This document shows positions 1-40,871 of a stretch of 40,871 bases of DNA, one piece after another. The stretch is taken from IMG/VR virus record IMGVR_UViG_3300045988_025559; one strand, written 5' to 3'. Under the pieces are notes generated by a model. It did not search any database. It worked only from the letters and a program-made list of their open reading frames with translations, and was not told the origin of the DNA. Position 1 is the stretch's first letter, and the number at the start of each line of letters is the position of its first letter. Origin of the DNA: a virus. A program made the translations under genes and the position numbers.

Positions 1-79
1 AGCGCTGGCCGGAGATGGCGGCGAAGATCCAGAAGCGGCTGCTGGGCGAGGGCAAGATCACAAAGGCAATGATTGAGAG
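1..79. repeat. Terminal overlap: exact copy of 40793-40871 (circular or circularly permuted molecule written as a linear contig)
   Basis: The first and last 79 nt are identical (agcgctggccggagatggcggcgaag...caatgattgagag). The ORF frame is continuous across the join. Confidence 0.95.
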
Positions 80-3000
80 CTATGTGGATGCCTACGCCGG
101 GATCTACGGCGACGACACGGACGCCTACGTCGAGGAGATCGTCGCGGACACCTACGCCGGCATGAACCGAACGGACTACGGCACGAACCAGCTGCGCGCG
201 GACGTGAAGATGGAGGTCGGCCAGTGGCAGAAAAAATCCGGCAGCGCGAGAGCGCCGCCGGCGAAATACAGTATGGTCGGGCGTGGAGAAAACGGACTGA
301 AAACGTATAAGAGCGATTTCGGCAGCGATATGACGGTGGAAGAAAAGAAGACCTATATGTATCGCCTGATTACGGATGTATGGGCAAAGAAGCCGCTACA
401 GCTGACCATTTTGCAGGATGGCAAGGAGCGGCAGATCACGGCCAGATTCGACGGGGAAGCGAACGGGGAGAGGTTTGCCGGGAAAATGGCATATGGAAAC
501 CGGCGCGGGAACAGAACGGAGCGCCTGATTACGCTGAACCTTGCAAATGATATCTGGGAAATTGCGAATGAATCCAGATATGAAAACAGCAAAGGCGAGT
601 TCAAACAGACACGGATGCACGAGAGTTCGGAGCGCTGGCATTACTTCGTAAATGCAATCAACTATGTCGATGATGCACAGCCGGGTCGGAACGGCGTTTA
701 CGACTTCAACCTGGACGTCATGGAACGGGATGATGGTGATTTCGTCTATACCTTCTCACTCAAAAAAAGAAGAACCGACGCCCCCCGGACTTTCACTGCC
801 GGGGTTGACGGCAAAAACGCCGCCGACGCAGATTCTTCTAAGAACAGTATATCCAAAACGGGAGAAACTGTCAAGGGGAAATTCTCTGCAAGCGCGCGGC
901 AGGCATCGGAGCGGGATAAACAGAACCTTGAGACCGTCTCTGCGATGCTGGACGATGGGAGCGGGCGCGGTGTGTTTAAGGACGCCGTTTTCCTGCGGAA
1001 TCCGAGGCTCATGCAGAAACTGATTGATGAGCGGGAGAAGACGAAGACGGCAGCGTTCCGGGATTGGTTCGCAGACAGCAAGGCAACGAACACGACAGGC
1101 GAGCCACTGCTGGTGTTCCACGGTGCCGGAGCGAAATTTACAAAGTTTGATGTAGGCGGGAAACCGATCTGGCTGACTGCAAACATCAAGTACGCGGAAG
1201 AATACTCCACTGCGACGCGCAGCGTTGAGCGAATTCTGCCGGAGGCATCGATCTACGCAGGGAACGTCGATCGTATTATCCCGGCATATATTCGCGTGGA
1301 GAATCCGGCGCATGTTGGAAACACTGACGGCGGATACAGCGGGAATTATGTGGATCTTGCGAAGCGGCTACAGATCAGACCTAGCGAACTGCAAGCCGTA
1401 TGGGAACAGGCGGGGAAGCCGGAGCTCATGTGGCAGGTGATCAATACGCCGGGGATGGTAGAGATGCTGAAACGGCATGGATACGACGGGGTTCAGGCGG
1501 TTGAGAACGGCGTGAAGGCATGGGCTGTGTTTGATTCTGCGCAAGTGAAGTCCGCGGTTGCAAACAACGGAAGTTTCAGCCTAACGAACCCGGATATCCG
1601 GTATTCTTCGCAGGACGGGCGGTATCGGGATCTGATGGGGGAGAAGGCGGCGCAGTATGTGCGGCGGCTGGAGTCCGGACTGGTGAACGAGCTGGCGGAG
1701 AATCTAAGCGTGCCGGGGCAGGCGAAGCGGGAGGTTTTGCGGCCGATGGCCGAGGAGGCGCTGCGGTCGTTCTTTACGGACGGGCAGCTTGACCGGGCGA
1801 AGCTGAACGACCTCTTTGAAACGGCCTACAAGGCGGGCGTGGAGGAGGATCAGCAGTATATCGAGCAGTACGGGGACCTGAAAAAATTCATCAGGGATCA
1901 GAAGATCTCGATCTCCGAGACGGACCGGCAGGACATTGCGGACTACAACCTGTTCCGGAAGGCAGCAATGGGAACGCTGACGATCAGCAAGGACGGCTTG
2001 CCGGTGGACGTGGCGTATCAGCAGCTGCAGGAGATGGCGCCGGAGCTGTTCCCGGCAGACATTACCGCGCCGAGCGACCAGCTGATGCAGATCTACGATG
2101 TGGCGCGCGGCATTCAGAAGGTACAGAAGACGCTGGATGAATACTACGGGGCGCAGGCGGCGAGCTTCAAGAAGTGGCAGCAGGCGAATTTCACGGAATC
2201 CATTGACCGGCTGACGAGCGGGCTGCGCGTGGCGCAGCGGTATCTGGACGCGCAGAACAAGGCCAAAGAAAAGCTTGCTATTCCGCAGACAGCGGAAGAA
2301 ACGAAGCAGATGTGGGCGCAGCTGAAGGACGCAAGGCGAGTGGTCGAGAAAGCGCAGAGCAAGACGCTGCTGACGGAAGCCGACCAGAAGATCGTGAACC
2401 GGCTGCTGCGCGGGGAGACAAGCCCAGATTATGTGGCAGGGCTGGAAAACGGGCAGCAGATCCTGAAGGTCTACGAGGCAAAGGCTGACTATGATATGCT
2501 GGCGCTGAAGCTCAAGGCATGGAACGCGCAGCGCAAGCAGGGGCTGCGGGACTTTGCCGAGAAGGCGCTGACGGAAGCAGAGGCCGTCAAGTGGGTCGAC
2601 AAGGTTATGGGGATCCAGTACCAGCGCGAGACGATGGAGCGAAACATCCGGGATATCGCGCGGAAGGGAAAGGTCTCTGACGAAAAGGCCAATGCTTTTA
2701 TCAACAAGTATTTCTGGCCCGTCCATGAGAACGAGAGCAAACGCAAGAATTACCTCGTGCAGCAGCAGAATAGGATCAAGGAGCTGAAGCTCGACCGGCA
2801 GGTACGGAAGGGAAATCTGGTATCCGAGAGCTATGCGGTGCAGTGGCTGGGCGAGGCGGAATTCAACCGGGACTATCTCAAACAGCACCCGCGTGTCGAA
2901 AGGCGCGGGGGGATGACGTTTGACGAGTGGAACGCGGCCATTCAGGAATTCGAGAAGCAGAACCCGAATCTGGATCTCGGCAAGGTGCGGGCAGCCGTGA

Positions 3001-5237
3001 AGGTTTTCCATGAGGTCTACGACAAGCTGTTCCAGGATATGAACCGGGTGCGCATTGAGAACGGCTATGAGCCGGTCAATTATCTGCAGGGATATTTCCC
3101 ACACTTCCAGGAGAACGAGGAAGGCGGCAGCATTCTGCAGAAGTTCGCAAGGGCGGCCGGGATCGAGGGCGATGTGTCGCCGCTGCCTGCGACGATCAAC
3201 GGCCTCACGGCAAACTTCAAACCCGGCATCCGGTACATGGCGAACATCCAGAACCGACTTGGCTACGCGACGGCGTATGACGCGCTGCAGGGCTTTGACC
3301 GGTACATTGAGGTCACGACAGACGTGATCTTCCACACGGCGGACATTCAGCGGCTGCGGGCGCTGGCAACGCAGATCCGGTATCGGGCGTCGGACGAGGG
3401 CCTGAAACAGCGGATCGACGCGATCATGATGAACCCGTTCCTCAACCCGGACGAGGCCAACGAGCAGGTGACGAACCTGACGAAGGAAGGACGGTATGGG
3501 CTTTCGAACTTTGTGGATGAGCTGGACGAATACACGAACCTTCTGGCGGGAAAGAAGTCGCGGCTCGACCGGGGCATGGAGAAGACGTTTGGGAGACGAT
3601 TCTACAACGTTATGAAGAAATTCGAGTCCCGCGTGGGCGCGAACATGGTCGCGGCCAACGTGGGTTCGGCGCTCACAAACTTCATTCCGATCACGCAGGC
3701 ATGGAGCCAGGTGTCGACGGAGGACGTGCTGCGCGGCATGTGGGATACGCTGAAAAACTACAAGACCGCTGACGGGCTGGATTCTGCGTCGACGTTCATC
3801 AACAACCGAAGCGGTTACAGGCGGCTGGCCATGAGCACGATGGGTAAAGTCTCCGCCGGTGCAGGATGGATGATGGAATCCATCGACACGTTCACGACGG
3901 GGAGTGTCGTCCGTGCGCGGTATTACCAGAATCTGCGGCGGGGCATGAGCGAGACGAGCGCGATGCAGGAAGCGGATCAGTTTGCCTCCGGCGTCATGGC
4001 AGACCGCAGCAAAGGCTCGACGCCGACGCTATACTCTGCGCGGAACCCGCTGGTAAAGCTGTTCACGCAGTTTCAGTTGGAAGTCAACAACGAACTGAGC
4101 TGGATCTTCAAGGATATGGCGCGGGAGGAGCGGAAGAAGGGCGTGGCGGCGCTGGCGAAGGCCATGTTCAAATTCCTCATCGGCGCGTGGATCTACAATG
4201 AATTCTATGAGAGCATTGTGGGCAGGCGTGCGGCGCTGGATCCGCTGGATATCATCAATGATACGGTCGGAGATTTCACGGGGTATCAGCTGCCGAACAC
4301 GGTACAGGCGGCAGCATCCGGGAAATGGGACTTCACGAAGGAGAAGCCGGGCACGTATCAGGCGATCAAGAACCTTGAGGGGAACATCATTTCTGAGTTC
4401 CCGGGCACGCAGGCGTTGACGATCCTAGGCGTGGATGAGGCGCTGGGGTTGGACATTGACAGCGGCAGGATCGCCGTGACGTCGGCCATCCCGAACCTCG
4501 GAAACATCGAGAAGGCGCTGCTGGCAAAGAACGAGGACATGGCGCCTGCGAAGAAGGCACAGACCATCGGAAACGAGCTTCTGAAGCCGGGCCTGTATCT
4601 GGCGACGCCGTTCGGCGGCGGGCAGATCCGCAAGTCGTATCAGGGCGCGACGGCGGCGGCTCGCGGCGGCAGCTACACAGTGGACAACGAGGGGCGCGAT
4701 ATCTTACAGTATCCCGTGTATAACGACAATCCCGCAGACCGGGCGAAGAGCTGGGCACAGGCGCTGCTGTTCGGCAAGACGGCGACGGAAGAGGCGCAGA
4801 GCTGGGTGGAGAGCGGGTTCAAGTCGCTGTCCGCGAAGGAGACCGCCGCCTATCAGGGCATGACCGAGGGCGGAACCGACCAGAGAGAAAGCTACGCATT
4901 CGTGACCGCCATGAAGAGGGTCGACGACAAGAATGCAAAGCTCACCATGCTGTACGCCTACGACATCCCACAGAACGCGAAGACGGCATATTATTATTCA
5001 GTCATGGCGTCTGACGAGGAGCAGGCGAAGATGGACGCGCTGGCAGCGGACGGCGTCGGCTATGACGCCTACATGCAGTACAAGCAGACGTACTTCAAGC
5101 AGTTCGGAACGCAGACAGTTTCGCAGGAACGGATCCAGACCGTGCTGGATGGGCTGAACCTGACAAAGGCGCAGAAGGCCGCGCTCTGGGCGGCCATGGG
5201 GACGAGCTGGAAAGAAGAAAACAATCCGTACAAGTAA
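1..5237 (+). CDS. 3' continuation of the giant virion polyvalent protein (joins 37675..40792). Contains an ART-PolyVal-like domain, a long helical region and a C-terminal hydrophobic/ejection-like region.
   Basis: The frame is open from base 1 (track ORF 15..5237 only starts at the first ATG). Position 15 corresponds to 40807, which is in frame with ATG 37675. Stop TAA at 5235-5237 is followed by a terminator. Confidence 0.85.
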   Translation, partial: RWPEMAAKIQKRLLGEGKITKAMIESYVDAYAGIYGDDTDAYVEEIVADTYAGMNRTDYGTNQLRADVKMEVGQWQKKSGSARAPPAKYSMVGRGENGLKTYKSDFGSDMTVEEKKTYMYRLITDVWAKKPLQLTILQDGKERQITARFDGEANGERFAGKMAYGNRRGNRTERLITLNLANDIWEIANESRYENSKGEFKQTRMHESSERWHYFVNAINYVDDAQPGRNGVYDFNLDVMERDDGDFVYTFSLKKRRTDAPRTFTAGVDGKNAADADSSKNSISKTGETVKGKFSASARQASERDKQNLETVSAMLDDGSGRGVFKDAVFLRNPRLMQKLIDEREKTKTAAFRDWFADSKATNTTGEPLLVFHGAGAKFTKFDVGGKPIWLTANIKYAEEYSTATRSVERILPEASIYAGNVDRIIPAYIRVENPAHVGNTDGGYSGNYVDLAKRLQIRPSELQAVWEQAGKPELMWQVINTPGMVEMLKRHGYDGVQAVENGVKAWAVFDSAQVKSAVANNGSFSLTNPDIRYSSQDGRYRDLMGEKAAQYVRRLESGLVNELAENLSVPGQAKREVLRPMAEEALRSFFTDGQLDRAKLNDLFETAYKAGVEEDQQYIEQYGDLKKFIRDQKISISETDRQDIADYNLFRKAAMGTLTISKDGLPVDVAYQQLQEMAPELFPADITAPSDQLMQIYDVARGIQKVQKTLDEYYGAQAASFKKWQQANFTESIDRLTSGLRVAQRYLDAQNKAKEKLAIPQTAEETKQMWAQLKDARRVVEKAQSKTLLTEADQKIVNRLLRGETSPDYVAGLENGQQILKVYEAKADYDMLALKLKAWNAQRKQGLRDFAEKALTEAEAVKWVDKVMGIQYQRETMERNIRDIARKGKVSDEKANAFINKYFWPVHENESKRKNYLVQQQNRIKELKLDRQVRKGNLVSESYAVQWLGEAEFNRDYLKQHPRVERRGGMTFDEWNAAIQEFEKQNPNLDLGKVRAAVKVFHEVYDKLFQDMNRVRIENGYEPVNYLQGYFPHFQENEEGGSILQKFARAAGIEGDVSPLPATINGLTANFKPGIRYMANIQNRLGYATAYDALQGFDRYIEVTTDVIFHTADIQRLRALATQIRYRASDEGLKQRIDAIMMNPFLNPDEANEQVTNLTKEGRYGLSNFVDELDEYTNLLAGKKSRLDRGMEKTFGRRFYNVMKKFESRVGANMVAANVGSALTNFIPITQAWSQVSTEDVLRGMWDTLKNYKTADGLDSASTFINNRSGYRRLAMSTMGKVSAGAGWMMESIDTFTTGSVVRARYYQNLRRGMSETSAMQEADQFASGVMADRSKGSTPTLYSARNPLVKLFTQFQLEVNNELSWIFKDMAREERKKGVAALAKAMFKFLIGAWIYNEFYESIVGRRAALDPLDIINDTVGDFTGYQLPNTVQAAASGKWDFTKEKPGTYQAIKNLEGNIISEFPGTQALTILGVDEALGLDIDSGRIAVTSAIPNLGNIEKALLAKNEDMAPAKKAQTIGNELLKPGLYLATPFGGGQIRKSYQGATAAARGGSYTVDNEGRDILQYPVYNDNPADRAKSWAQALLFGKTATEEAQSWVESGFKSLSAKETAAYQGMTEGGTDQRESYAFVTAMKRVDDKNAKLTMLYAYDIPQNAKTAYYYSVMASDEEQAKMDALAADGVGYDAYMQYKQTYFKQFGTQTVSQERIQTVLDGLNLTKAQKAALWAAMGTSWKEENNPYK
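1060..1600 (+). other. ART-PolyVal-like (ADP-ribosyltransferase-fold) domain inside the giant ORF
   Basis: Peptide FRDWFADSKATNTTGEPLLVFHGAGAKFTKFD...IWLTANIKYAEEY...HGYDGVQAVENG..WAVFDSAQVKSAVANNGSFSLTNPDIRYS. It matches my memory of the FxxWFGDSKVVDxxGxPLVVYHGT ... YDG ... VF.P.QIKSA ... NPDIRFS pattern of polyvalent-protein ART domains. Confidence 0.6.
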
Positions 5238-5241
5238 CCGC

Positions 5242-5273
5242 AGGCCGGGGCATTTGCCCCGGCCTTTGCTTTG
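5242..5273 (+). terminator. Rho-independent terminator after the giant ORF
   Basis: Stem aggccgggg / ccccggcct (9 bp) with loop catttg, followed by ttgctttg. Confidence 0.7.
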
Positions 5274-5333
5274 CGGCGTGGGGTGAATCCGGCGCGGGGG
5301 TCTGCTACACTGGATGAAAAGGAGGGATGCGGT

Positions 5334-5693: not shown

Positions 5694-7127
5694 ATGAGGG
5701 TAGAGATTCCGAATCAGATCATGGTGACGATCGGAGGGCTGATCTCCCGCGGGGTAAAGGCCGTGGAGGTTACGGACGCGGGGAAGCTGATTTTCACGCT
5801 GACAGACGGCAGCACGATCGATCTTGGCTCGGTCATGGGCCAGCAGGGGCCGAAGGGCGAGACGGGACCGGCGGGGCCGCAGGGGCAGACCGGACCTGCC
5901 GGCGCACAGGGCGAGACCGGCGCGGCAGGCGCGAGCATCACGTCGATCACGAAGAAATCGCAGAGCGGGACGACGGCGACGTACACGATCGCACTTTCGG
6001 ACGGGAAGACATTTGACTTCAACGTCGAGACCGTCAAGGGTGAGAAGGGCGACAAAGGAGACAAGGGGGAAACCGGCGCAACCGGCCCGAAGGGCGAGAC
6101 CGGCGAGCGGGGACCGCAGGGCGAGACCGGCCCCAAGGGTGACCCCGGCGAAAAGGGCGAAACAGGCGCGACCGGCGCGACCGGCCCGAAGGGAGACCCG
6201 GGCCAGACCGGCCCGCAGGGTGAGACCGGCCAGACTGGCCCGGCAGGTCCGCAGGGGCAGAAGGGAGACACTGGCTCCGGATTTGTGGTCAAGGGATATT
6301 ACGGCTCGGTCTCCGCGCTGCAGGCGTCGGTCAAGAATCCGGAGGTAGGAGACGCCTACGGCGTGGGCGCGGCTGCACCTTATGACATTTACATCTACGA
6401 CGGCGTGACGAATGCGTGGGTCAACAACGGACCGCTGCAGGGCGCAAAGGGCGACAAGGGAGATCCGGGCGAACAGGGGCCGAAGGGCGAACCGGGCGAG
6501 ACTGGACCGCAAGGACCTACGGGTCCGCAGGGTGAGACGGGGCCTCAGGGGCCAACGGGTCCGGCCGGAGACAACGGCGCGCCAGGCGCAAATGGCGTGA
6601 CGCCGACGATCGGCACAAATGGCAACTGGTATCTGGGCGAGAACGACACCGGGAAGCCGTCGCGCGGCGAGAAAGGCGATAAGGGCGACAAGGGACCGCA
6701 GGGAGAGCAAGGCGAGACGGGCGGGACCGGCGCGGCCGGAACGACATTCACGCCGTCGGTCGCTGCGGACGGGACGCTCAGCTGGACGAACGACGGCGGG
6801 AAAACGAACCCGGACAGCGTCAACATCAAAGGCCCGCAGGGCAATCCGGGCGAAAAGGGCAACCCAGGAGAGACCGGCGCAAAGGGCGCAGACGGCGTCA
6901 CGCCGACGATCGGCACGAACGGCAACTGGTATCTGGGAGATACCGACACCGGGAAGCCATCGCGCGGAGAGAAGGGCGACAAGGGCGACAAGGGCGATCC
7001 CGGCGCGCAGGGGCCTGCGGGCGCAACGCCCGTCAAGGGGACGGATTACTTTACGGCGGCGGATAAGGCCGCGCTGGTGCAGGACGTGCTTGCCGCGCTG
7101 CCAGAATGGACAGGAGGAAACTACTGA
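5694..7127 (+). CDS. Collagen-like (Gly-X-Y repeat) tail fibre protein
   Basis: AAGGAG RBS. Several long GXY runs (GPKGETGPAGPQGQTGPAGAQGETG...). Two copies of the module GVTPTIGTNGNWYLG.TDTGKPSRGEKGDKGDKG. Confidence 0.9.
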   Translation: MRVEIPNQIMVTIGGLISRGVKAVEVTDAGKLIFTLTDGSTIDLGSVMGQQGPKGETGPAGPQGQTGPAGAQGETGAAGASITSITKKSQSGTTATYTIALSDGKTFDFNVETVKGEKGDKGDKGETGATGPKGETGERGPQGETGPKGDPGEKGETGATGATGPKGDPGQTGPQGETGQTGPAGPQGQKGDTGSGFVVKGYYGSVSALQASVKNPEVGDAYGVGAAAPYDIYIYDGVTNAWVNNGPLQGAKGDKGDPGEQGPKGEPGETGPQGPTGPQGETGPQGPTGPAGDNGAPGANGVTPTIGTNGNWYLGENDTGKPSRGEKGDKGDKGPQGEQGETGGTGAAGTTFTPSVAADGTLSWTNDGGKTNPDSVNIKGPQGNPGEKGNPGETGAKGADGVTPTIGTNGNWYLGDTDTGKPSRGEKGDKGDKGDPGAQGPAGATPVKGTDYFTAADKAALVQDVLAALPEWTGGNY

Positions 7128-10336: not shown

Positions 10337-10359
10337 GCAACGGCTCATGGCGCTTTTTC
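10327..10359. terminator. Bidirectional rho-independent terminator between convergent genes
   Basis: Perfect 12-bp stem agcgccatgagc / gctcatggcgct with loop aacg. A T-run (ttttt) follows on the + side and an A-rich run lies on the other side. Confidence 0.85.
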
Positions 10360-10868
10360 TATGTTCCGGGATTGGCTTTCGGACGATAGTTCGGGTTATA
10401 CGATCTGCATGCGCGCTCCAGCGCGCGGAAGTCGCAGGAGATCTTACAGATGAAGCTGCTCTTTCCATTGACGACATCGTAGTATGTACGATTGGCATGA
10501 TCCAGAATGGCAAGCTTCTGACGGTTGCAATGTTCGATCTGGTTCAGGAGCAGGTTGCGATACTTCACATCCGGCTCTGCGGAAATGTCGTATTCAAGGA
10601 TCGCAGAATCAGGGACAGGGACCATGTTGTTGAAGCCGAGAAGACCGAGGCGGCCACCGTCAAGCTTCAGAATGTGCTTGCCGGGCTTTAGATTGGCATG
10701 GTTTGGCTTCGGGGATTCCATGGGGACGAAGTAACGGAAACTCCCGACAGTGAGAACAACGCCGACATAGGGGCGACGCTGGCCCTTGTTGAACGGGACA
10801 CGGAAGTCACGGGAATGGAGGAAGGAAATATAGCGCTCACTGATGTGGCAGATAAAAAGATTCTCCAA
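10359..10868 (-). CDS. toxN: ToxN/AbiQ-family type III toxin (endoribonuclease), abortive-infection type
   Basis: Peptide ..FICHISERYISFLHSRDFRVPFNKGQRRPYVGVVLTVGSFRYFVPMESPKPNH...LGLLGFNNMVPV.. matches the ToxN/AbiQ signature (KYI.YL...D..V......RPY.G......YF.PL.SPK..H ... NMIPV). TTG start with a weak GGAAAGG RBS. Repeat array and terminator lie immediately upstream. Confidence 0.85.
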   Translation of the reverse strand: MENLFICHISERYISFLHSRDFRVPFNKGQRRPYVGVVLTVGSFRYFVPMESPKPNHANLKPGKHILKLDGGRLGLLGFNNMVPVPDSAILEYDISAEPDVKYRNLLLNQIEHCNRQKLAILDHANRTYYDVVNGKSSFICKISCDFRALERACRSYNPNYRPKANPGT

Positions 10869-10916: not shown

Positions 10917-10939
10917 TTTAGTTGCCCATGATTTTTTAA

Positions 10940-11050
10940 GCCCCTACTTAACGGCAAGGGATTTCCGCTTTTTTGGCTCCCTACTTGACGGCAAGGGATT
11001 TCCGCTTTTTTAGCTCCCTATTTAACGGCAAGGGATCTCCGCTTTCATGG
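10940..11050 (-). ncRNA. toxI: Three tandem 37-nt repeats: candidate ToxI-like antitoxin RNA
   Basis: Units 10940-10976, 10977-11013 and 11014-11050 differ at 4-6 positions. Minus-strand unit: CUAAAAAAGCGGAAAUCCCUUGCCGUCAAGUAGGGAG. There are no spacers and no ORF. The array lies upstream of toxN on the same strand. Confidence 0.75.
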
Positions 11051-12793: not shown

Positions 12794-14383
12794 TCAATCC
12801 GCGAGGGGATAGAGGGTGACGTGCATGTCGCTGCCGGATTTGGTGTAGGATTTGGTCTGTTTATGGTAGAGGACCTTCTGCAGGACAGTTTTCAGGAGGG
12901 CGTTTTTCTCCTGCGGGGATGCGGCGAGCGGGTAGGTCTCGAGGACGCGGCGGACGGCGGGGGCCAGACGGGCGCGGGCCTGTCTGGCACGGGCCAGCTC
13001 ATGGATCGTGGTTTGGCTTGCCTCGATGCGGTCGACGATGACCTGCTTGTCAGCGGCGAGCGCCTGCGAGCGCTGCAGGAAGATCTCCGGCGTATAGACG
13101 CCGATCTCGACCAGCTCATACGCGCGGGCCTCCTGCGCCTCCAGCTTGGCAAGCTGCTTGCGGTCGGCGGCGATCGAGGACTCGAGCGCGGTGCGCATGG
13201 GCGTGTCATCTGGCGCAGCGGCCTCACCGAGCTCCAGCTCGCGCAGCCAGCCACGCAGAGCATCCAGCACGGCGTCCTCCACATCATCATACCACGCGCT
13301 GACGGTCGTGCAGCCGTAGGAGGGACAAAGTAGCGTATCGCGCCGGCCGCCGGAAGACGGGCGGCGCACCATCACGCGGCCGCACTGGTCGCAGCGGACG
13401 AGCCCAGCGAGGCTCGTCACGGTCCCCCATGCGCCCTTGCCGCGCGGGCTGGCGCTGGAATAGCTCAGAGCGACGGCCTTGTCGTACTGCTCCTGCGAGA
13501 TCAGGCCGTCGTGCAGCCCTTTATAAAGCTTCAGATCCTCCTGCCGGGTGCGGGGACGGCTGACGACGACAGCGCCGTCGACAATGCGCTTCGTCTCCGG
13601 TCGCCCGCCGGACTTGATCCAGCCAGCATTTGCCGGATTGCGCAGGATATCCAGCACAGAGTCCGCGCGCCAGAGGCTGCCGGAGTTGGTCGGGACGCCG
13701 AGGCTGTTCAGCCGCGTGGAGATCGCCTTCGCGCCGATGCGCGCGCAGCCATCGCCGGTGTACCAGTTGTAGATCTGCTGCAGGACGGGGGCCTGCTCCG
13801 GGTGCGGGACGAGCTTATAACCCTTGTCGTTCGGCAGCTTCTCGCGCAGCCAGCCGAAGGGTGTTTTGCCGGAGATCCACTTGCCTTCGCGTAAAGAAGC
13901 CTCCTTGCCGCGCGACAGGCGGCGCTTGATGGTGTTGTACTCGCGCCGGGACATAAAGAGGCCGAACTCAAAGTATTCCTCGTCCATCTCGTTGTTCGGG
14001 TCGTAGGTCTTGTTCGGCGTGATGATGCGGGTGTCGGAGTATTTAAAGGTCTGGGCAATAATGCCCTGGTCGATGGTGTCGCCGCGCGCCAGACGCTCGA
14101 CCTCCATGACGATGACGCCCGCATAGTTCCCGGTCTCAACGAGCTGCAGGACCTTCTGCACCTCCGGCCGGACGGCAATGGAGTCGCCGGTCACGACCTC
14201 TTCGCAGATCTCCACGACGTTCAGCCCGCGGCTTTCGGACAGCGACAAAAGCGCGGCCCGGTGCCGTTTGAGCGTGTCGGTCTGGCCGAGGGCTTCGGCC
14301 TCCATGTCCTTCCGGGACTTGCGCAGGTAAATGATGTACTGCGCGAGCGGGTCGGCGATTTTCCAGGTAGATGTAAATTTCAT
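12794..14383 (-). CDS. int: Large serine recombinase (phage integrase)
   Basis: N-terminal resolvase motif YIIYLRKSRKD..., a recombinase domain, the Zn-ribbon CDQCGRVMVRR...LLCPSYGC and a C-terminal coiled coil. Confidence 0.92.
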   Translation of the reverse strand: MKFTSTWKIADPLAQYIIYLRKSRKDMEAEALGQTDTLKRHRAALLSLSESRGLNVVEICEEVVTGDSIAVRPEVQKVLQLVETGNYAGVIVMEVERLARGDTIDQGIIAQTFKYSDTRIITPNKTYDPNNEMDEEYFEFGLFMSRREYNTIKRRLSRGKEASLREGKWISGKTPFGWLREKLPNDKGYKLVPHPEQAPVLQQIYNWYTGDGCARIGAKAISTRLNSLGVPTNSGSLWRADSVLDILRNPANAGWIKSGGRPETKRIVDGAVVVSRPRTRQEDLKLYKGLHDGLISQEQYDKAVALSYSSASPRGKGAWGTVTSLAGLVRCDQCGRVMVRRPSSGGRRDTLLCPSYGCTTVSAWYDDVEDAVLDALRGWLRELELGEAAAPDDTPMRTALESSIAADRKQLAKLEAQEARAYELVEIGVYTPEIFLQRSQALAADKQVIVDRIEASQTTIHELARARQARARLAPAVRRVLETYPLAASPQEKNALLKTVLQKVLYHKQTKSYTKSGSDMHVTLYPLAD

Positions 14384-14412: not shown

Positions 14413-14907
14413 TTATACGGGAACAAAGGATGCAAGCGCGGAGGCGCGAAGCCAGCCGATATTGGGATTACAAAGGTCGACAAGGAGCGCCAGGAGCGCG
14501 ATGAGAACGATGCACACCAGCACGCCGATCAGAATATCCTTGCGCCGCGCCTCGACGGACTTATGGCGGATGATCTGTTCCTGCTTGGAAATGATCGCGT
14601 TAGCATGCTTGAGCCGCAGCTCAAGCTCGGCGATGCGCGGCATTTTATCCGGCTGGTCCAGCAGCACGGCGCTGTCTGTGTCCATCGCGTCCGCGATCCG
14701 GTGCAGAGCGGACGAAGGGACGTCGCAGCCACGCTCATAGCGCGAGAGGCTGGCGACGGAAACGCCGGAGGCATCGGACAGCTCGTTCAGCGTCATGCCG
14801 CGAGACAAACGCTCTGAACGGATGCGATTTTCACAGGTTTCCAAGGTTTCCACGATCCTTTCCAAAAATGAGAATCCAGAAAATGCGGATTTCTCAAAAA
14901 ATCTCAT
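14413..14907 (-). CDS. XRE-family HTH protein with a C-terminal transmembrane anchor
   Basis: HTH NRIRSERLSRGMTLNELSDASGVSVASLSRYERG, a coiled region, then ILIGVLVCIVLIALLALLV. It ends 30 nt upstream of int. The start is uncertain (no clear RBS, possibly leaderless or internal). Confidence 0.7.
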   Translation of the reverse strand: MRFFEKSAFSGFSFLERIVETLETCENRIRSERLSRGMTLNELSDASGVSVASLSRYERGCDVPSSALHRIADAMDTDSAVLLDQPDKMPRIAELELRLKHANAIISKQEQIIRHKSVEARRKDILIGVLVCIVLIALLALLVDLCNPNIGWLRASALASFVPV

Positions 14908-16250: not shown

Positions 16251-16290
16251 CAAAAATAAACGGAGACGGTCAAGCGTCTCCGTTTAATTT
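16251..16290. terminator. Bidirectional terminator overlapping the 3' end of the repressor gene
   Basis: Stem cggagacg / cgtctccg with loop gtcaag, T-rich on both sides (tttaattttttt on +, tttatttttg on -). Confidence 0.7.
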
Positions 16291-16644
16291 TTTTACGAAA
16301 TTTTCAATTTCGCTCCATTTTTCCGGCGGGAGCGCCATCAGGAGGGAGATGAAGCGTTTCCGGAAGGAGTCATCCGCGTCGGACATGATGTTCGAGACCA
16401 GCAGGGCCAGATCCTCATTCGCGCTGCGCTGCACATACATTTCCCCTTCGCCGTCTTCGAGCCAGGCGAGGGAGACGTTGAATTCCCGGCAGATATCCGA
16501 GATCGTGCGCTCGGTTGGGACATATGTGCCGGAGCATATTCGAGAGACATGAGCTTGTGTCAGGTGAATGCGCTCGGCAAATTTGGACTGCGTCAGACCC
16601 TGATCTTTGATTAAAAACGAGATTCGTTCATTCACTGTGTTCAT
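16270..16644 (-). CDS. CI-like XRE-family repressor
   Basis: GAAGGTGA RBS and ATG 16644. HTH NERISFLIKDQGLTQSKFAERIHLTQAHVSRICSG. Divergent from the early operon. Confidence 0.8.
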   Translation of the reverse strand: MNTVNERISFLIKDQGLTQSKFAERIHLTQAHVSRICSGTYVPTERTISDICREFNVSLAWLEDGEGEMYVQRSANEDLALLVSNIMSDADDSFRKRFISLLMALPPEKWSEIENFVKKLNGDA

Positions 16645-16667
16645 GGATTCACCTTCTTTCTGAAATG

Positions 16668-16696
16668 AGAGTATCACAGGCACGCATAATTGTCAA
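16668..16696 (-). promoter_or_regulatory. Repressor-gene promoter (minus strand)
   Basis: The minus strand reads TTGACA (16696-16691), a 17-nt spacer, then TGaTACTCT (extended -10, 16676-16668). Confidence 0.55.
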
Positions 16697-18390: not shown

Positions 18391-18643
18391 CATCGATTAC
18401 CCCGGCGAGCGGGCACCGCGGCGCCCCGCCGTGATCGCGCAGGCCGGATACACCGGCCAGAACCACTTTTCCGTTACATATGGAGACCAGAAAGTGACCG
18501 TCCGCGCCGAGGACGGCTATGCGGCCCTTTTCACCGCCGCCAAACACTGGGGCTATAAATTCACCCGCCCGGAGTACCATCAGAACGCCCGCGCAACCAA
18601 GCTCCACTACACGCCGGACACCCGGCCGGGGGCGCTGGTATGA
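18380..18643 (+). CDS. Hypothetical early protein
   Basis: AAGGAGG lies 10 nt upstream of TTG 18380. Confidence 0.45.
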   Translation: MRNSIDYPGERAPRRPAVIAQAGYTGQNHFSVTYGDQKVTVRAEDGYAALFTAAKHWGYKFTRPEYHQNARATKLHYTPDTRPGALV

Positions 18644-19074
18644 ACAAAGATGTGATGTTTTCCAGCGCGACGGATTTGTGGGAAACGCCGCAGAGCTTTT
18701 TTGACGCGCTGAACGAAGAATTTGGCTTTGAAACGGACGTCTGCGCGCTGCCGGAGAATGCAAAATGCGCGCGGTATTTTACACCGGAGGACAACGGCCT
18801 TGCTCAGACGTGGACGGGCGTCTGCTGGTGTAACCCGCCGTATGGGCGGGAGATCGGGAAATGGGTGCAGAAAGCAGCAATGTCCGCCAACAAAAATGGG
18901 GCAACCGTTGTCATGCTGCTGCCCGCGCGGACGGATACAAAGTGGTTTCATCGATACATATACGGAAAGGCGGAAATCCGCTTTATCGCCGGTCGGCTGA
19001 AATTCGGCGGCGGCAAGCACAACGCGCCGTTTCCAAGCATGGTTGTGGTATTCGGGCAGGAGAATAAGACATGA
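18640..19074 (+). CDS. dam: Phage Dam-family DNA N6-adenine methyltransferase
   Basis: DLWETPQSFFDALNEEFGF..DVCA......WTGVCWCNPPYGREIGKWV.K......VVMLLPARTDTKWFH, i.e. the TP...F and NPPY motifs of the small phage Dam family. Confidence 0.85.
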   Translation: MNKDVMFSSATDLWETPQSFFDALNEEFGFETDVCALPENAKCARYFTPEDNGLAQTWTGVCWCNPPYGREIGKWVQKAAMSANKNGATVVMLLPARTDTKWFHRYIYGKAEIRFIAGRLKFGGGKHNAPFPSMVVVFGQENKT

Positions 19075-19262
19075 GATTTGTCTGTGACTGCTGCCACGAT
19101 CTGACGAACATCGAGGCCGACAGGATGGAGATCCAGGGCGACAAGCTGATGGTGTACAGCCGCGGGCGGCTGGTATACGTGGCGGATCTGGGGCAGATCA
19201 TGCTGGCGAAGCTTACGCCGGGGAGGGAGGACGGCAATGGACTTAGAGCAAACCGCGATTGA
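19071..19262 (+). CDS. Hypothetical small protein
   Basis: GGAG RBS, ATGA overlap. Confidence 0.5.
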   Translation: MRFVCDCCHDLTNIEADRMEIQGDKLMVYSRGRLVYVADLGQIMLAKLTPGREDGNGLRANRD

Positions 19263-20112
19263 GCGGCTGAAAATGGCCTCGGATATGAGCTTGCGGCTGT
19301 ACAAGCAACCGCTTGTGATTACATACTCGGGCGGCAAGGATTCAGATGTGCTTTTGCATCTGGCTGGGAAATCTGGTATCCCGTATGAGGTGCTGCATTC
19401 GCTGACCACGGCGGACGCGCCGGAGACCGTCTGGCATGTGCGGGATACCTTCCGCCGCTTGGAGCTGGCTGGCGTAAAATGCGACATCGATACCCACCGC
19501 ACATCGGACGGCGGGAATGTGACGATGTGGAATTTGATTCCGCGCAAACTCATACCGCCGACACGGCTGAAGCGGTACTGCTGCGCGGCGCTCAAAGAGA
19601 CCAGCGGGCGTGGGCGGTGGATCGCGACTGGCGTCCGCTGGGCCGAATCGCAAAAGCGCAAGTCCCGCGGCGTCATGGAGGCCCTGCACAGGGACAAGTC
19701 CAAGCGGCTGACGCTGATGAACGACAATGACGAAAGCCGCATGTTGGTGGAAAACTGCCAGCTCAAGGGGACGCGAGCAATCAATCCAATCATTGACTGG
19801 CAAGATGCTGACATCTGGGATTACTGCACAGCAGAAAAGATTTCGACGAACCCGCTTTACGCCTGCGGTTTTGAACGCGTGGGCTGTATCGGATGCCCAA
19901 TGGCGGGAAAGCACCGGAAGGCGCAGTTTGCACGCTATCCAAAGATCAAGGCCGCGTATGTCCGGGCGTTTGACAGGATGCTTGCAGAACGGCAGACGCG
20001 GGGGCTGCCCTGCGACTGGCAGACGGGCGAAGACGTCCTGCACTGGAGCCTGGAGGACGGCGTGCTGCCGGGACAAATGGTTTTTGAAGGAATGGAGGAG
20101 GACACGCTATGA
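19237..20112 (+). CDS. PAPS-reductase-family PP-loop protein with a C-terminal Cys cluster
   Basis: GGGAGGGAGGA RBS. PP-loop VITYSGGKDSDVLL and C-terminal CGFERVGCIGCP. Confidence 0.8.
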   Translation: MDLEQTAIERLKMASDMSLRLYKQPLVITYSGGKDSDVLLHLAGKSGIPYEVLHSLTTADAPETVWHVRDTFRRLELAGVKCDIDTHRTSDGGNVTMWNLIPRKLIPPTRLKRYCCAALKETSGRGRWIATGVRWAESQKRKSRGVMEALHRDKSKRLTLMNDNDESRMLVENCQLKGTRAINPIIDWQDADIWDYCTAEKISTNPLYACGFERVGCIGCPMAGKHRKAQFARYPKIKAAYVRAFDRMLAERQTRGLPCDWQTGEDVLHWSLEDGVLPGQMVFEGMEEDTL

Positions 20113-25500: not shown

Positions 25501-25932
25501 ATGGCGAGGAAACCGAAGTATGAATCCGTGGAGCAGATCGAAGGGCTGATCGAGGCGTATTTTGAGAGCTGCAAGGGAGAGATCCTGCGGGATGAGGACG
25601 GGCGCATCGTTTTCAACCAGAAAGACGGGACTCCGGTCTGGGTGGGGCGGAAGCCGCCGACAATCCCGGGGCTTGCGCTGGCACTGGGCTTTTCCAGCAA
25701 GCAGAGTCTGTATAACTACAAGGCCAGGAAAGAATTTATGGACTCGATTTCGCGCGCGCAGACGCGCGTGGAACAATATACGGCCGAAAGACTGTTCGAC
25801 CGGGACTCTCAGCGGGGCGCGCAGTTCGCGCTGGAGTATGCGTTCCGGTATCGCAGAGACACCGGGGACGAAAAGCAGGATCAGACGCCGCGTGTGCTGC
25901 TGGAATGTGACGCGGAGGACGCGAGCGAATGA
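25501..25932 (+). CDS. terS: Terminase small subunit
   Basis: GGGAGG RBS. KPPTIPGLALALGFSSKQSLYNYKARKEF...I..A...VE...E..L pattern typical of TerS. Immediately upstream of TerL. Confidence 0.8.
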   Translation: MARKPKYESVEQIEGLIEAYFESCKGEILRDEDGRIVFNQKDGTPVWVGRKPPTIPGLALALGFSSKQSLYNYKARKEFMDSISRAQTRVEQYTAERLFDRDSQRGAQFALEYAFRYRRDTGDEKQDQTPRVLLECDAEDASE

Positions 25933-37663: not shown

Positions 37664-37674
37664 CGGAGGGAAGC

Positions 37675-40600
37675 ATGGGACGAATCACACTGACAGAGGA
37701 ACAAAAGCGGATTGCAGAGAGCATCCGCAGCGGACAGGGAGCCAGCACACAGCAGGCTCCCTCCGCCTATCGCGGCGGAAGAATCACGCTGGACCAGAAG
37801 CAGATCCAGATCGCGAGCAAGTACGGCTTGCCGAACCCGGACTACGGGAAGAACGCGCAGAGCACGCAGACGACCGTAGACGATCCGCTGCATAAGCAGT
37901 ATGCAGCGTTTATGGCATACCAGAACGCCGTGCGGGAGGCGGAGCTTGCGCAGATCGAGCCGGGGGCCGCGCTGAAGGGCCGGGCGAGCGGACAGAAGAA
38001 GACGGAGAATGCGGGGGCGGAGACCGACGGGAAGGTATCAGAGCAGGAATACGGACGGTCTTCCGCGATGCAGAAGCAGTACGGGACGTACCAGAATTAT
38101 CTGCGCGGCGTGGAGGCGGCGCAGGGGCTGAAGCTTGGGACACTGGCGCTGCAGGGACAGAGCGCACTGCTGGCCGGCCGGTTTGCGCCGGCCACGCAGC
38201 AGGTGCGGGGGGACGTGGATGCGCAGAACCGGCGTGCAAAAGCGGCGCAGACCGTGCAGCGGGATCAGGTGCGCGGGATGCGGCGGACGTCGCAGGAGCT
38301 GGACAAGCAGATCGAGGCGCTGGAGATCGAACAGGCGGACACGCATTTCTCCGGGACCGGGCTTTCGGAAAATGGGAAGAGCGTGACGCAGCTGCAGAAC
38401 GAGATCGAGAACCTGCAGGCAAAGAAGACGGCGGTCGACAACCAGAGCGTGCTGGCCCGGGCACAGGAGGCAATCGGGAACCTGAGCGAGGAAGACCAGA
38501 ATCTGCTCCGGCAGTACCGCGGGCAGGAACTGAACGGATATCAGGTGCGGGCGTATGCGAAGTACGACGCGAAGACGGCACTCAACGAAAAAGGATACAG
38601 CGACGACACGCTCAAGCGGCTGGCGGAATGGCAGAAGGTGCTCGAAGACTATGAGAATGCGCAGAAGCTCGACCAGGCGGCGCAGGAGATGGGAAGCGGA
38701 TCCTTCGCGGGGAAAGCTGCGGCGACGCTGTTCTCTGCGGCGCTGGCGCCGGGGAAGGCACTGGGCAATCTGGAATCGCTGCGCGGCGTATTGCCGAAGT
38801 GGGCGGGCGGCTATCAGAACGAGGATATGCCGACGAACATCTACAGCCCGGCGTACAACGCGTCGCGCCTGTCCTCCGGCATTCGGCAGAGCGTGATGCA
38901 GAATATGAACCCGACGGGGCAGTTCCTCTATCAGGCAGGCACGTCGGCGCTGGACAGCGCGGTCAACATGGCGGTCTCGACGGGGCTCGTCGGGACAGTC
39001 GGCGGTGCGGCCGGGGCTGGCGCGAAGGATGCGATCGCGGAGACGATGAACTGGGTGATGGGCTCGCAGGTCGCGGCAGATTCGGTCTATGAGGGAATCC
39101 AGAACGGCAAGTCCAACGCGGACGCGCTGGTCGACGGTATCGTCGAGGGCGCGATCGAGGGCTTCACGGAAAAATACTCCGTGGGCGATATTATCGAGAA
39201 CATGTTGAGCGGGAAGGCCGTGTGGAGGAAGGCGCTGCGGTCGTTCGCGTCGGAAGGCGCGGAAGAGATCGCGTCCAACTGGCTAAACCGTGCGTATGAC
39301 GTGGTGGCGAAGCATGACCGGGGTGAGGTCATGACGGCCTACGCAAATTATATCGCAGAGGGCAGGACGCCGGCACAGGCGCTGGCGGCGATGGTCGGAG
39401 ACTTCGCAAAAGAAGACAGCCTTTCGTTCCTCGCGGGCGGCCTGTCAGGCCTTGCCATGTCCGGGACGTATGCGGGCGTGAACCGCGTGATTTTGGAAGC
39501 AAACGTCACGCAGACGGCCAGAGCGGTCATCGAGGCGGGCGAAGTACAAGACGTCATCGACTATGGCATGGCGCAGGAAGAGGGCACGAAGGCGCACCAG
39601 CTGGCCGAGGAACTGCAGCAGACCGTGGACGATGGCGGCGAGGTGACGCAGAAGGCCGTGGAGAACACGCTGCGTGAGGTGGCGAAGGAACAGCAGGCGG
39701 CCGTGGACGAAGGGCAGGAGCCGCGCGTGCCGGAGACGCTGACCCGGCTCGAGCAGCTGCAGGAACAGGCCCGGCAGGAGCAGGCACAGGCCGAGGCGGA
39801 CGAGAAGACGTTCCAGATCTACAAGAGCGCGGCGGAGACGGCGCAGGAGAACCAGAGGCTTGCGCAGCAGTACCAGCAGGAGCAGGAGCAGGAGCAGAAT
39901 CGGGCACAGCAGAGCGTCCAGGCGGTGCAGCAGGCCCAGCAGTCGGCGCAGCAGCAGTATAACCAGGACAGCTTATTTGCACCCATCCCAGGAACGGAGA
40001 GTATGGGTGAGCTGGATCCGGTGCAGTACGCCCGGCAGCAGACGGCGGACGCGGAGCAGGCGCTCGATGAAGCCGCACTGCAGCAGGAGGAACAGTATCT
40101 GCAGACGCAGGCCCAGAGAGCGGGCTACGACGAGCAGACGGCGGCGTATTTCCTGAACGGGAACACGACGGGCATGCCGGCGGAGCAGTATGCGCAGAGC
40201 TTCGGACAGGTCTATGAGCAGGGCAGACTCGGCGCGAGTGAGCAGCGGGCGATGCGCTACGCCGAAGGAATGAATCAGGACGTGGCGGCAGCCGCCTATC
40301 GAGCGGGCATTGCCGCAGGGCAGAAAGGGGTAAACAATGGCAGTATCGAGGTTACTGATGAAGGACAAATCGGGCAGGCTGGTCAGCGTGCCGAAGGACA
40401 AGCTGGAGGCGTTCGCCAAAGCACAGCGCAGCAGCAAAGAGCTGACGCCGGAAGAAAGAGAGCGCAGGGTGCAAGAGATCTCGCAAAGGCTTGGGATGAA
40501 GTAGAACTTTCGACGCTCGGCTTTGGAAAGGACAACACGCAAAAAGTGCGCGTCATGCCGAAGGGACAAGAGGCCAGAAGCGAGGATATCCAGGCGGCGG

Positions 40601-40871
40601 CAAAATTCTTCCGGTCGATGGGCGTGCAGAACGCGCGGTTCTTCACCGGGCAGCTGACGCAGGAGATCGATGGGCAGACGTTTTATGCGGACGCTGCCGT
40701 GACGGAGGACGGCTCCGTGCTCATCCGGGCGGACAGCGAGGAGTATTCTGCGTTCGAGCTGGCGAAGCACGAGGGGTATCATCTGCTTGCCGAGCGCTGG
40801 CCGGAGATGGCGGCGAAGATCCAGAAGCGGCTGCTGGGCGAGGGCAAGATCACAAAGGCAATGATTGAGAG
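37675..40871 (+). CDS. 5' part of the giant virion ORF (runs off the window and continues at base 1). Coiled coils, Gly/Ala-rich hydrophobic segments, Gln-rich linker, then an HExxH metallopeptidase-like domain.
   Basis: GGAGGG RBS and ATG 37675. I saw no stop in this frame to the window end, and the track lists no complete ORF in this frame, as expected for an ORF without a stop. HEGYH lies at 40768-40782. Confidence 0.8.
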   Translation, partial: MGRITLTEEQKRIAESIRSGQGASTQQAPSAYRGGRITLDQKQIQIASKYGLPNPDYGKNAQSTQTTVDDPLHKQYAAFMAYQNAVREAELAQIEPGAALKGRASGQKKTENAGAETDGKVSEQEYGRSSAMQKQYGTYQNYLRGVEAAQGLKLGTLALQGQSALLAGRFAPATQQVRGDVDAQNRRAKAAQTVQRDQVRGMRRTSQELDKQIEALEIEQADTHFSGTGLSENGKSVTQLQNEIENLQAKKTAVDNQSVLARAQEAIGNLSEEDQNLLRQYRGQELNGYQVRAYAKYDAKTALNEKGYSDDTLKRLAEWQKVLEDYENAQKLDQAAQEMGSGSFAGKAAATLFSAALAPGKALGNLESLRGVLPKWAGGYQNEDMPTNIYSPAYNASRLSSGIRQSVMQNMNPTGQFLYQAGTSALDSAVNMAVSTGLVGTVGGAAGAGAKDAIAETMNWVMGSQVAADSVYEGIQNGKSNADALVDGIVEGAIEGFTEKYSVGDIIENMLSGKAVWRKALRSFASEGAEEIASNWLNRAYDVVAKHDRGEVMTAYANYIAEGRTPAQALAAMVGDFAKEDSLSFLAGGLSGLAMSGTYAGVNRVILEANVTQTARAVIEAGEVQDVIDYGMAQEEGTKAHQLAEELQQTVDDGGEVTQKAVENTLREVAKEQQAAVDEGQEPRVPETLTRLEQLQEQARQEQAQAEADEKTFQIYKSAAETAQENQRLAQQYQQEQEQEQNRAQQSVQAVQQAQQSAQQQYNQDSLFAPIPGTESMGELDPVQYARQQTADAEQALDEAALQQEEQYLQTQAQRAGYDEQTAAYFLNGNTTGMPAEQYAQSFGQVYEQGRLGASEQRAMRYAEGMNQDVAAAAYRAGIAAGQKGVNNGSIEVTDEGQIGQAGQRAEGQAGGVRQSTAQQQRADAGRKRAQGARDLAKAWDEVELSTLGFGKDNTQKVRVMPKGQEARSEDIQAAAKFFRSMGVQNARFFTGQLTQEIDGQTFYADAAVTEDGSVLIRADSEEYSAFELAKHEGYHLLAERWPEMAAKIQKRLLGEGKITKAMIE
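40337..40504 (+). CDS. Embedded 55-codon ORF in the +1 frame of the giant ORF
   Basis: GAAAGGGG lies 6 nt upstream of ATG 40337. It encodes MAVSRLLMKDKSGRLVSVPKDKLEAFAKAQRSSKELTPEERERRVQEISQRLGMK. By hand count, GC3 is about 76 percent in this frame versus about 39 percent in the giant-ORF frame over the same stretch. Confidence 0.45.
   Translation: MAVSRLLMKDKSGRLVSVPKDKLEAFAKAQRSSKELTPEERERRVQEISQRLGMK
40793..40871. repeat. Terminal overlap: exact copy of bases 1-79
   Basis: See the feature at 1-79. Confidence 0.95.

Follow-up and report, generated by a model that had tools for sequence, protein, structure and literature searches.

A giant junction-spanning phage gene encodes a polyvalent protein with a central slot for interchangeable cassettes

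The viral DNA IMGVR_UViG_3300045988_025559 (40,871 nt; hereafter the window, meaning the full stretch, in whose own numbering all positions are given) encodes, across the point at which its two ends join, a giant protein of 2,784 residues that belongs to the polyvalent proteins of Iyer et al. 2017 (PMC5512222). Sequence comparison indicates that conserved N-terminal and C-terminal modules of this protein flank a central slot of interchangeable cassettes, one of which, in the phage at hand, is an ADP-ribosyltransferase (ART). The explanation that we favor, and regard as probable though well short of assured, is that the protein is delivered from the virion as a scaffold carrying exchangeable effectors, which an adjoining zincin-like domain probably releases.

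Several defining features of the class were found, in agreement with an earlier note on this DNA that had proposed the polyvalent-protein concept from the sequence. The protein comprises at least five modules (an N-core, the zincin-like domain, a cassette B, the ART and a C module); its gene sits among the late genes, between those for the capsid and the tail fiber; and it carries a signature domain of the class, ART-PolyVal (PF18760), which is the sole Pfam family to match when the whole giant protein is searched. The match covers residues 1404-1565 (window 1092-1577) and model positions 2-140 of 140, with an E-value of 1e-15 when the entire protein is searched and of 6e-18 when the segment alone is used, and with scores of 59-66 bits against a cut-off of 31.2, so that the ART-like domain proposed earlier now has a significant profile match to a polyvalent-protein family. 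Relatives add further members of the repertoire: among 14 diverse distant members of the family, MuF_C was detected in eight, ART-PolyVal in six, LPD23 in six, PBECR5 in four, PBECR3 in two and LPD3 in one, all of which are polyvalent-protein signature domains (Iyer et al. 2017, PMC5512222). Of the polyvalent domains that had been anticipated, ART-PolyVal is thus present here and LPD3 and LPD23 in relatives, while the metallopeptidase (MPTase) family MPTase-PolyVal was not recovered.

The gene that encodes this protein is real, and the junction that it crosses is no artifact of circularization. Joining 37675..40792 to 1..5237 yields 8,355 nt in frame, with a sole stop codon at the end. The 5' part of the open reading frame (ORF), encoding residues 1-1065, occupies 37675..40871, the 3' part, encoding residues 1040-2784 and the stop, occupies 1..5237, and codon 1040 takes its first base from 40792 and the other two from bases 1-2; the gene and its expression signals all lie on the + strand. 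The final 79 nt of the window (40793-40871) are identical to positions 1-79, and this overlap is located within the giant ORF, at about residues 1040-1066. A length of 79 nt is also a common assembler k-mer length. Because it falls inside an essential-looking ORF and equals such a k-mer, the overlap is best read as the signature of a circular assembly rather than as a physical terminal repeat, and it is uninformative on genome ends or packaging mode. A ribosome-binding site, read from the sequence as GGAGGG (37665..37670), stands 4 nt before the ATG at 37675; the stop of the upstream gene, at 37663, lies 11 nt from the same ATG; and a terminator-like element, comprising a 10-bp GC-rich hairpin and a T-run (5242-5265; full element 5242..5275), begins 4 nt past the stop codon. 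Joining and translating the two parts therefore confirmed the single open frame, with good ribosome-binding site and terminator, that had been described across the junction.

Since the ORF becomes visible only once the window ends are joined, and the overlap has the length of a k-mer, one might ask whether it is an artifact of assembly or annotation, either a circularization chimera or a fusion of separate genes. Independent contigs leave this reading next to no chance, and we rejected it. The exact 2,784-residue protein (P0001) is called on an independent 41,215-nt ENA contig; the GenBank human-faeces virome contig MT835607.1, which is 94% identical to the window in nucleotide sequence over 15 kb, carries a continuous homologous ORF across the equivalent junction, as do six contigs from metagenome-assembled genomes (MAGs); more than 2,700 close relatives of the protein lie on independent junction-crossing contigs; and full-length relatives number in the thousands across ENA, Logan, JGI, NCBI and MGnify. 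Both the pattern of GC content at third codon positions (GC3) and the lone stop codon fit a single gene. A stop or frameshift that would break the ORF was looked for, and the frame is intact on many independent contigs. One close relative, P0004, is already named 'PolyVal ADP-Ribosyltransferase' in NCBI nr.

Alignment of close homologs delineates which parts of the protein are fixed and which are exchanged, a division of the protein into scaffold and cargo slot that the earlier note had not recognized. In 36 proteins at least 91% identical to the query, residues 1-1128 (ending in ARAPPAK) and 1576-2784 (starting with QDGRYRDLMGEK) are constant, and the region between them is occupied by one of eight cassette sets: B+A, B+C+A, D+A (or F, a variant of D fused to A), G+A, G+C+A, E+A, E+C+A and B alone. 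The set in this phage is B+A, and the existence of B alone indicates that the ART can be lost with the scaffold unchanged. Cassette A is ART-PolyVal; D combines MuF_C (1e-13) with a second ART-PolyVal (2e-23); G is MuF_C (3e-12); E is weakly LPD3-like, at an E-value of 3e-4 that lies below the cut-off; and B and C have no family. The boundaries of the slot do not shift even in clades with only 37-62% scaffold identity to the query. Cassette C, moreover, is 81-86% identical between proteins whose scaffolds match the query at only 25-48%; cassettes therefore either move between scaffolds or are under far stronger constraint than the scaffolds are.

The order of domains that had been described along the protein (a Gly/Ala-rich region, a Gln-rich linker, an HExxH domain, a beta-rich domain, the ART, a helical region and a hydrophobic helix) holds up in the sequence itself, in profile searches and in AlphaFold2 (AF2) predictions; nothing in our analysis supports the tape-measure-like role suggested for the N terminus. 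Database coverage of the protein is sparse. PHROGs contributed two function-unknown families, phrog_22978 on residues 404-755 and phrog_21376 on the ART region, NCBIfam gave no match to any of the three thirds of the protein, and a sequence search of the PDB with the whole protein returned 0 matches. As judged from conservation, the N module comprises residues 1-1128 and ends in the zincin-like HExxH domain. Its most conserved part, delimited by clade alignment, PHROGs and a hidden Markov model (HMM), is the Gly/Ala-rich N-core (residues 340-640; 38692..39594), which is near-invariant across clades with only 31-43% overall identity, matches phrog_22978 at 1.8e-38 and, used as an HMM, detects 9 of the 14 distant family members. 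An acidic Gln/Glu/Ala-rich linker, recognized from composition per 100 residues, follows (residues 641-930; 39595..40464), with 28 Q between residues 701 and 800.

The HExxH domain is itself divided by the window ends. Its first part (residues 931-1039; 40465..40792), defined by invariant residues and AF2, contains the HEGYH motif at residues 1032-1036 (codons 40768-40782), and its second part (residues 1040-1128; 1..266), defined by alignments and AF2, contains a helix bearing E1084, E1085 and D1089 (encoded at 132-149) and ends in the conserved ARAPPAK. Across 25 diverse homologs H1032, E1033, H1036, E1084, E1085 and D1089 are all invariant, and the HExxH residues are near-invariant in 14 more distant ones. 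An AF2 model of residues 925-1340, built from a nine-sequence alignment, predicts the domain at a pLDDT of about 80: an N-terminal helix leads into a small beta-sheet, after which come the HExxH helix, the inserted helices and a helix that bears the Glu pair. This predicted topology matches that described for polyvalent-protein MPTases, in which an N-terminal helix, a beta-sheet and the HExxH helix are followed by a Glu-bearing helix (PMC5512222). The best structural neighbors of the domain in BFVD are segments of giant proteins from uncultivated phages, including two named PolyVal ADP-ribosyltransferase and one SNF2-type polyvalent protein. It is these three lines, the invariant residues, the predicted topology and the structural neighbors, that suggest a zincin-like and active-looking domain.

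Downstream of this domain lie the two cassettes of the present phage. Cassette B (residues 1129-1333; 267..881) is bounded by K1128↓Y1129 and K1333↓F1334, the arrow marking the boundary, and is present or absent as a unit among the homologs at least 91% identical to the query. It appears beta-rich in AF2 secondary structure, at low confidence. No match to it was found in Pfam, NCBIfam or PHROGs, a local jackhmmer search against all other cassettes recovered only B itself, and a wider database search with it returned mostly gene fragments and no family. Cassette A (residues 1334-1575; 882..1607) contains the ART-PolyVal domain. The H-Y-D active site of ART-PolyVal/Tox-ART-HYD2 enzymes places the His on strand 1, the Tyr on strand 2 and the Asp on strand 5 (PMC5512222). 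In our alignment, H1413 (VFHG), Y1437 (KYAE) and D1551 (VFDS) are common to cassette A and to the second ART cassette of relatives and form a candidate H-Y-D triad, whose placement in those strands we infer; a local ART-domain alignment of many relatives proved too fragmentary to score the triad.

The remainder of the protein is the C-terminal scaffold (residues 1576-2784; 1608..5234), whose starting boundary is identical across clades and which AF2 predicts to be all-alpha. Its conserved core, at about residues 1975-2715, includes the motif NGYEPxNYxQGYFPHFQ, and a strongly hydrophobic 19-residue helix lies at residues 2420-2438 (4140-4196). The AF2 model of residues 1585-2784, from a five-sequence alignment, is all-helical, with a pLDDT of 51 and a pTM of 0.31, and was not used for a fold search. 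No match to the C module was found in Pfam, PHROG, NCBIfam or PDB sequences, such that about 2,300 of the 2,784 residues fall in two conserved modules without Pfam, PHROG-annotated, NCBIfam or PDB cover. The module is nonetheless widespread: a profile of the core (residues 1975-2715) retrieves 3,145 cluster representatives (clustered at 50% identity) when the limit is E<=1e-3 and 2,020 when it is E<=1e-30, and among the best 150 matches listed most are 2,000-3,900 residues long. It also diverges sharply between phages that are otherwise close. The C modules of MT835607.1 and of locus L011 are 51% and 39% identical to that of the window, respectively, amid neighboring structural proteins that are 79-100% identical and a downstream 137-residue gene that is 99-100% identical. 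This pattern marks the giant gene as a recombination hot spot in which the C module exists as divergent allotypes, as is seen more often in receptor-binding or conflict proteins than in the core components of virions. Separately, the C-terminal tail (residues ~2670-2784; window ~4890-5234) occurs in at least two versions: in proteins such as P0003, P0008 and P0009 the tail is different and longer, and in the P0003 loci examined (L003-L006) the longer tail is followed by an extra 89-residue ORF on the opposite strand (L003 18670-18939 (-)) that is absent from the window.

The boundaries of the cassettes share a short motif. All three carry [K/R]↓[F/Y/M]-S, in the forms PPAK↓YSM, VKGK↓FSA and PDIR↓YSS, the last of these at R1573↓Y1574. 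In the 2,784 residues [KR][FYM]S occurs four times, three of them exactly at the three cassette boundaries; shuffled sequences contain a mean of 1.7 such motifs anywhere in the protein. The fourth occurrence is the conserved TEK↓YSVG at residue 500, inside the N-core. The motif recurs at the boundaries in all clades, PPxx followed by [FYM]S is found past the zincin-like domain in 24 of 25 diverse homologs, and in the majority of distant members (K/R/Q)(F/Y)S(I/V/L/M)xE precedes the C module. Many zincins favor a bulky hydrophobic residue at P1', and since the junctions would offer one we propose them as candidate self-cleavage sites.

The genomic setting of the gene bears on how such a protein might be used. 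It closes a compact late operon that runs from TerS (25501-25932) through TerL, three tail-like proteins of 584, 402 and 464 residues (the first matching the PHROG 'internal virion protein', the last having an fn3 domain), the portal (Pfam P22_portal / SU10_portal), a probable scaffold protein of 284 residues and the major capsid protein to three proteins of 83, 125 and 366 residues that separate the capsid gene from the giant gene. Beyond the giant gene come the terminator, a 137-residue protein, a collagen-like tail fiber, a DUF6273 protein and a holin. The capsid protein remotely matches N4 gp56 over nearly its full length (blastp, 1.9e-6) as well as 401-residue capsid proteins in the PDB, and by capsid the nearest cultured relatives are Bacillus megaterium podophages of the genus Pagevirus, at 33% identity. 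Family searches found no tape-measure, tube, sheath, chaperone or PhageMin_Tail/TMP family among the structural genes, and both the N4-gp56-type capsid and the want of recognizable tape-measure and tube genes claimed previously are sustained.

In N4, TerL, tail genes, portal, scaffold, capsid and a few further genes likewise precede the gene for the 3,500-residue virion RNA polymerase, and because the late gene orders run parallel, the giant gene occupies the position of N4's ejected giant. Like ours, that N4 protein, gp50, is a giant whose gene lies downstream of the one for an N4-gp56-type capsid protein. N4 particles carry gp50 in the capsid and eject it, and an MPTase domain is described within it (PMC5512222). 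The two differ in that no RNA polymerase module is detectable in the protein studied here (by Pfam, or by HMMs of all segments against gp50, E>0.1), in that its cargo is an ADP-ribosyltransferase and an unassigned domain, and in that the phage is temperate, about 41 kb in size and of a Firmicutes-type host.

A late, structural setting could equally suit a purely structural virion part, such as a tape measure, a needle or an envelope conduit, in which the enzyme domains are accessory and nothing is released by cleavage. The protein is very long and mostly alpha-helical, with a helical C module of about 1,200 residues and its hydrophobic helix at residues 2420-2438, its gene sits in the structural operon just upstream of the tail-fiber gene, and a short-tailed phage on a thick-walled host would need an envelope bridge. 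We nevertheless consider this reading unlikely. The long-tail genes that accompany a tape measure (chaperones, a tube) were not found among the structural genes, the portal and capsid are of podovirus type, and a tape measure of 2,784 residues would imply a tail of roughly 400 nm (estimated at ~0.15 nm per residue). Moreover, the slot swaps conflict-system enzymes and can drop the ART without change to the scaffold, which argues for cargo. A conduit role for the scaffolds is compatible with delivery of effectors from the virion, and fits within that model rather than competing with it.

With respect to lifestyle and host, this phage encodes a serine integrase and close relatives encode tyrosine integrases, all six of the loci found in species-representative (GTDB) genomes come from Oscillospiraceae or Clostridiales MAGs, and fragments of the giant gene lie in the chromosomes of spore formers, adjoining a tRNA-Arg gene. 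The phage is thus temperate and podovirus-like, with a host that is probably a member of the Oscillospiraceae. A tblastn search of the scaffold against 50,697 phage records returned only one unannotated metagenomic contig and no cultured relative.

A temperate phage with exchangeable ART domains also brings to mind a prophage polymorphic toxin of the MuF kind, which would act against competitors after being freed at lysis or borne on particles and would be paired with immunity proteins. MuF polymorphic toxins (Jamet et al. 2017, PMC5576092) are likewise found in temperate Firmicutes phages and combine a conserved carrier with exchangeable domains, MuF_C-type domains appear in the cargo slot of relatives of the giant protein, ART and BECR-fold RNase (MuF_C/PBECR) domains occur in polymorphic toxin systems too (PMC5512222, PMC5576092), and the cassettes are exchanged through recombination. 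However, the Phage_Mu_F N-terminal domain was not detected with Pfam, and the variable part is internal and multi-cassette rather than C-terminal. Nor does an adjacent immunity gene co-vary with the cargo: g137, the gene directly downstream, is 99-100% identical in L001, L009, L010 and L011, although the cassettes differ in three or more of these loci, so that this position holds no cassette-linked immunity gene. On this balance we judge a toxin role quite unlikely.

The sequence of events that we favor, delivery of a polyvalent protein from the virion, would run as follows. The giant protein would be made late, its gene being the final one in the head operon of a temperate, podovirus-like Oscillospiraceae phage; it would then be taken into the virion and, by ejection, enter the cell together with the DNA. 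In the virion or in the cell, the zincin domain would cut at the conserved [K/R]↓[F/Y/M]-S motif found at each cassette boundary, and the freed effectors would modify host targets, aiding the establishment of infection or lysogeny, through ADP-ribosylation in this phage and through RNase-type PBECR/MuF_C domains in its relatives.

Several observations weigh against this account. Virion packaging, ejection, proteolytic processing and the targets of the effectors are all inferred. The scaffold shows no detectable similarity to N4 gp50-gp69 (segment HMMs, E>0.1 for gp50), to T7 gp13-gp16 (HMM and hhalign) or to the LPD38-bearing gp20 of Bacillus phage Page (BLASTP and segment HMMs); since it resembles none of these proteins, it is position and architecture that point to a carrier or ejection role. 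The HExxH region matched neither Pfam MPTase-PolyVal nor any peptidase family at E<=10, a profile of the domain gave only chance-level matches against PDB sequences, and Foldseek of the AF2 model (residues 925-1340) against the PDB found nothing below E 0.05. Thus, the zincin-like domain that the earlier note had read from its HExxH motif is supported by its invariant residues, its predicted topology and its structural neighbors, whereas the Pfam model goes unmatched and the PDB fold search was empty, leaving membership of the MPTase-PolyVal family unproven. The junction motif was defined only after the boundaries had been seen, and it could instead be a recombination linker or, given that several cassettes start with M-S, a relic of former N termini. 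Finally, a C module that is so divergent amid near-identical structural genes would be unusual for a protein that has to fit into a conserved virion.

Set beside the polyvalent proteins of Iyer et al., the giant protein agrees in being a giant multidomain product of a virion-gene context, in its ART-PolyVal domain and, through its relatives, in MuF_C, PBECR3/5, LPD3 and LPD23. MPTases have been proposed to cut polyvalent proteins into functional units (PMC5512222), and the HExxH domain, which adjoins the effectors here, would fit such a role, although Pfam MPTase-PolyVal does not recognize it. Unlike the free-form architectures described for the class, the present effectors are confined to one central slot bounded by a conserved junction motif, and about 2,300 residues reside in the two unannotated conserved modules. 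A giant protein with a polyvalent domain is likewise found in Bacillus phage Page, which by its capsid is the nearest relative in culture: Page_20 (L013 19786-24825), an unannotated protein of 1,679 residues at the end of the structural module, contains LPD38 (PF18857, 3e-27) and is, on that ground, a polyvalent protein too. It has no detectable homology to the giant protein (BLASTP, segment HMMs), and its position relative to the tail genes differs.

An analogy outside phages is offered by the MARTX toxins of Vibrio, in which conserved N- and C-terminal regions enclose a central array of effectors that recombination varies from strain to strain, and an adjacent autoprocessing protease cuts between the effectors after delivery. 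MARTX is a secreted bacterial toxin, and its protease is a cysteine protease activated by inositol hexakisphosphate. The likeness is one of architecture only, namely conserved ends around a variable effector array next to a protease; the sequences are unrelated, and the protein described here is the product of a phage structural operon, has a zincin-like motif and undergoes only hypothetical processing. A bolder version of the favored model, which we advance tentatively as a possibility and no further, would make the giant protein a platform for injection, modular and self-processing, and thereby the phage equivalent of MARTX, with scaffold modules dedicated to packaging and to passage through a Gram-positive-type envelope and with [K/R/Q]↓[F/Y/M]-S as the family-wide code at which the zincin would free any cassettes that recombination had brought into the slot. 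On such a platform the carrier would be targeted in host-phage conflict in its own right, because C-module allotypes diverge in otherwise near-identical phages.

Other features of the window and of related loci were also recorded. The serine integrase is of the large serine recombinase type (12794-14383 (-); phrog_95, 4e-87), and L003 (26011-27033 (-)) and L006 (24197-25219 (-)), whose giant protein P0003 is 97% identical, have a tyrosine integrase instead, which indicates that the integration module is swapped between close relatives. A ToxN-type toxin gene (10359-10868 (-); PF13958, E 1.2e-44) has a 37-nt tandem repeat of 3.1 copies (10933-11045) directly upstream on the same strand, and together the two resemble a phage-borne abortive-infection module of the type III toxin-antitoxin (ToxIN-like) kind. 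The early/lysogeny region encodes a Dam-type adenine methyltransferase, a PAPS-reductase-domain protein and two helix-turn-helix (HTH) repressor-like proteins (18640-19074, 19237-20112, 14413-14907 (-) and 16270-16683 (-)). A separate early-region protein with LPD18 (PF18832), a further domain associated with polyvalent proteins but here outside the giant gene, is encoded by a close relative (L004 27459-27755; 278 residues, cut by the end of the locus). The collagen-like tail-fiber gene (5694-7127), the repeats of which match many PHROG tail-fiber families, is the most variable structural gene of close relatives besides the giant gene, at 52-79% identity in genomes that are otherwise ~95% identical.

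The fragments retrieved with cassette B are themselves pieces of the giant gene. P0399 (279 residues, 109 member sequences), P0395 and P0404 each run from the end of the zincin domain through a B with an internal deletion into the first residues of the C module, and lie at L016 8001-8840 and also in L017 and L018, with a tRNA-Arg(CCT) gene at L016 8759-8834 (-). In its bacterial chromosome P0399 is flanked by an alcohol dehydrogenase gene and the spoIIIA operon, and it extends into the tRNA gene; this locus appears to be what remains of a prophage at a tRNA attachment site, in a host that forms spores.

The class to which the giant protein belongs is known, and its sequence is already public under an automatic 'PolyVal' name; we found no description, in the literature searched, of the scaffold modules of about 2,300 residues, of the single central slot or of the family-wide junction motif that sequence comparison brings out. 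Comparative genomics led to the prediction that polyvalent proteins are payloads of several effectors which phages inject, and few of them have been studied. The present family is very abundant in human-gut metagenomes, with upward of 2,700 close relatives and, for the C module, over 3,000 clusters at 50% identity, and its clean layout, in which a conserved protease-like domain, a short motif at every boundary and natural permutations of cassettes occur on a near-constant background, makes the processing hypothesis directly testable. The roughly 2,300 conserved, unannotated residues presumably serve packaging or ejection in podovirus-like phages of Oscillospiraceae, a group without a cultured representative in the phage collection searched. 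The family thus offers a route to new injected effectors, including domains without a known family, and, should the injection-platform reading prove true, its more than 3,000 clusters would amount to a large and so far unexplored stock of effectors that gut phages inject, the orphan cassettes B and C among them.

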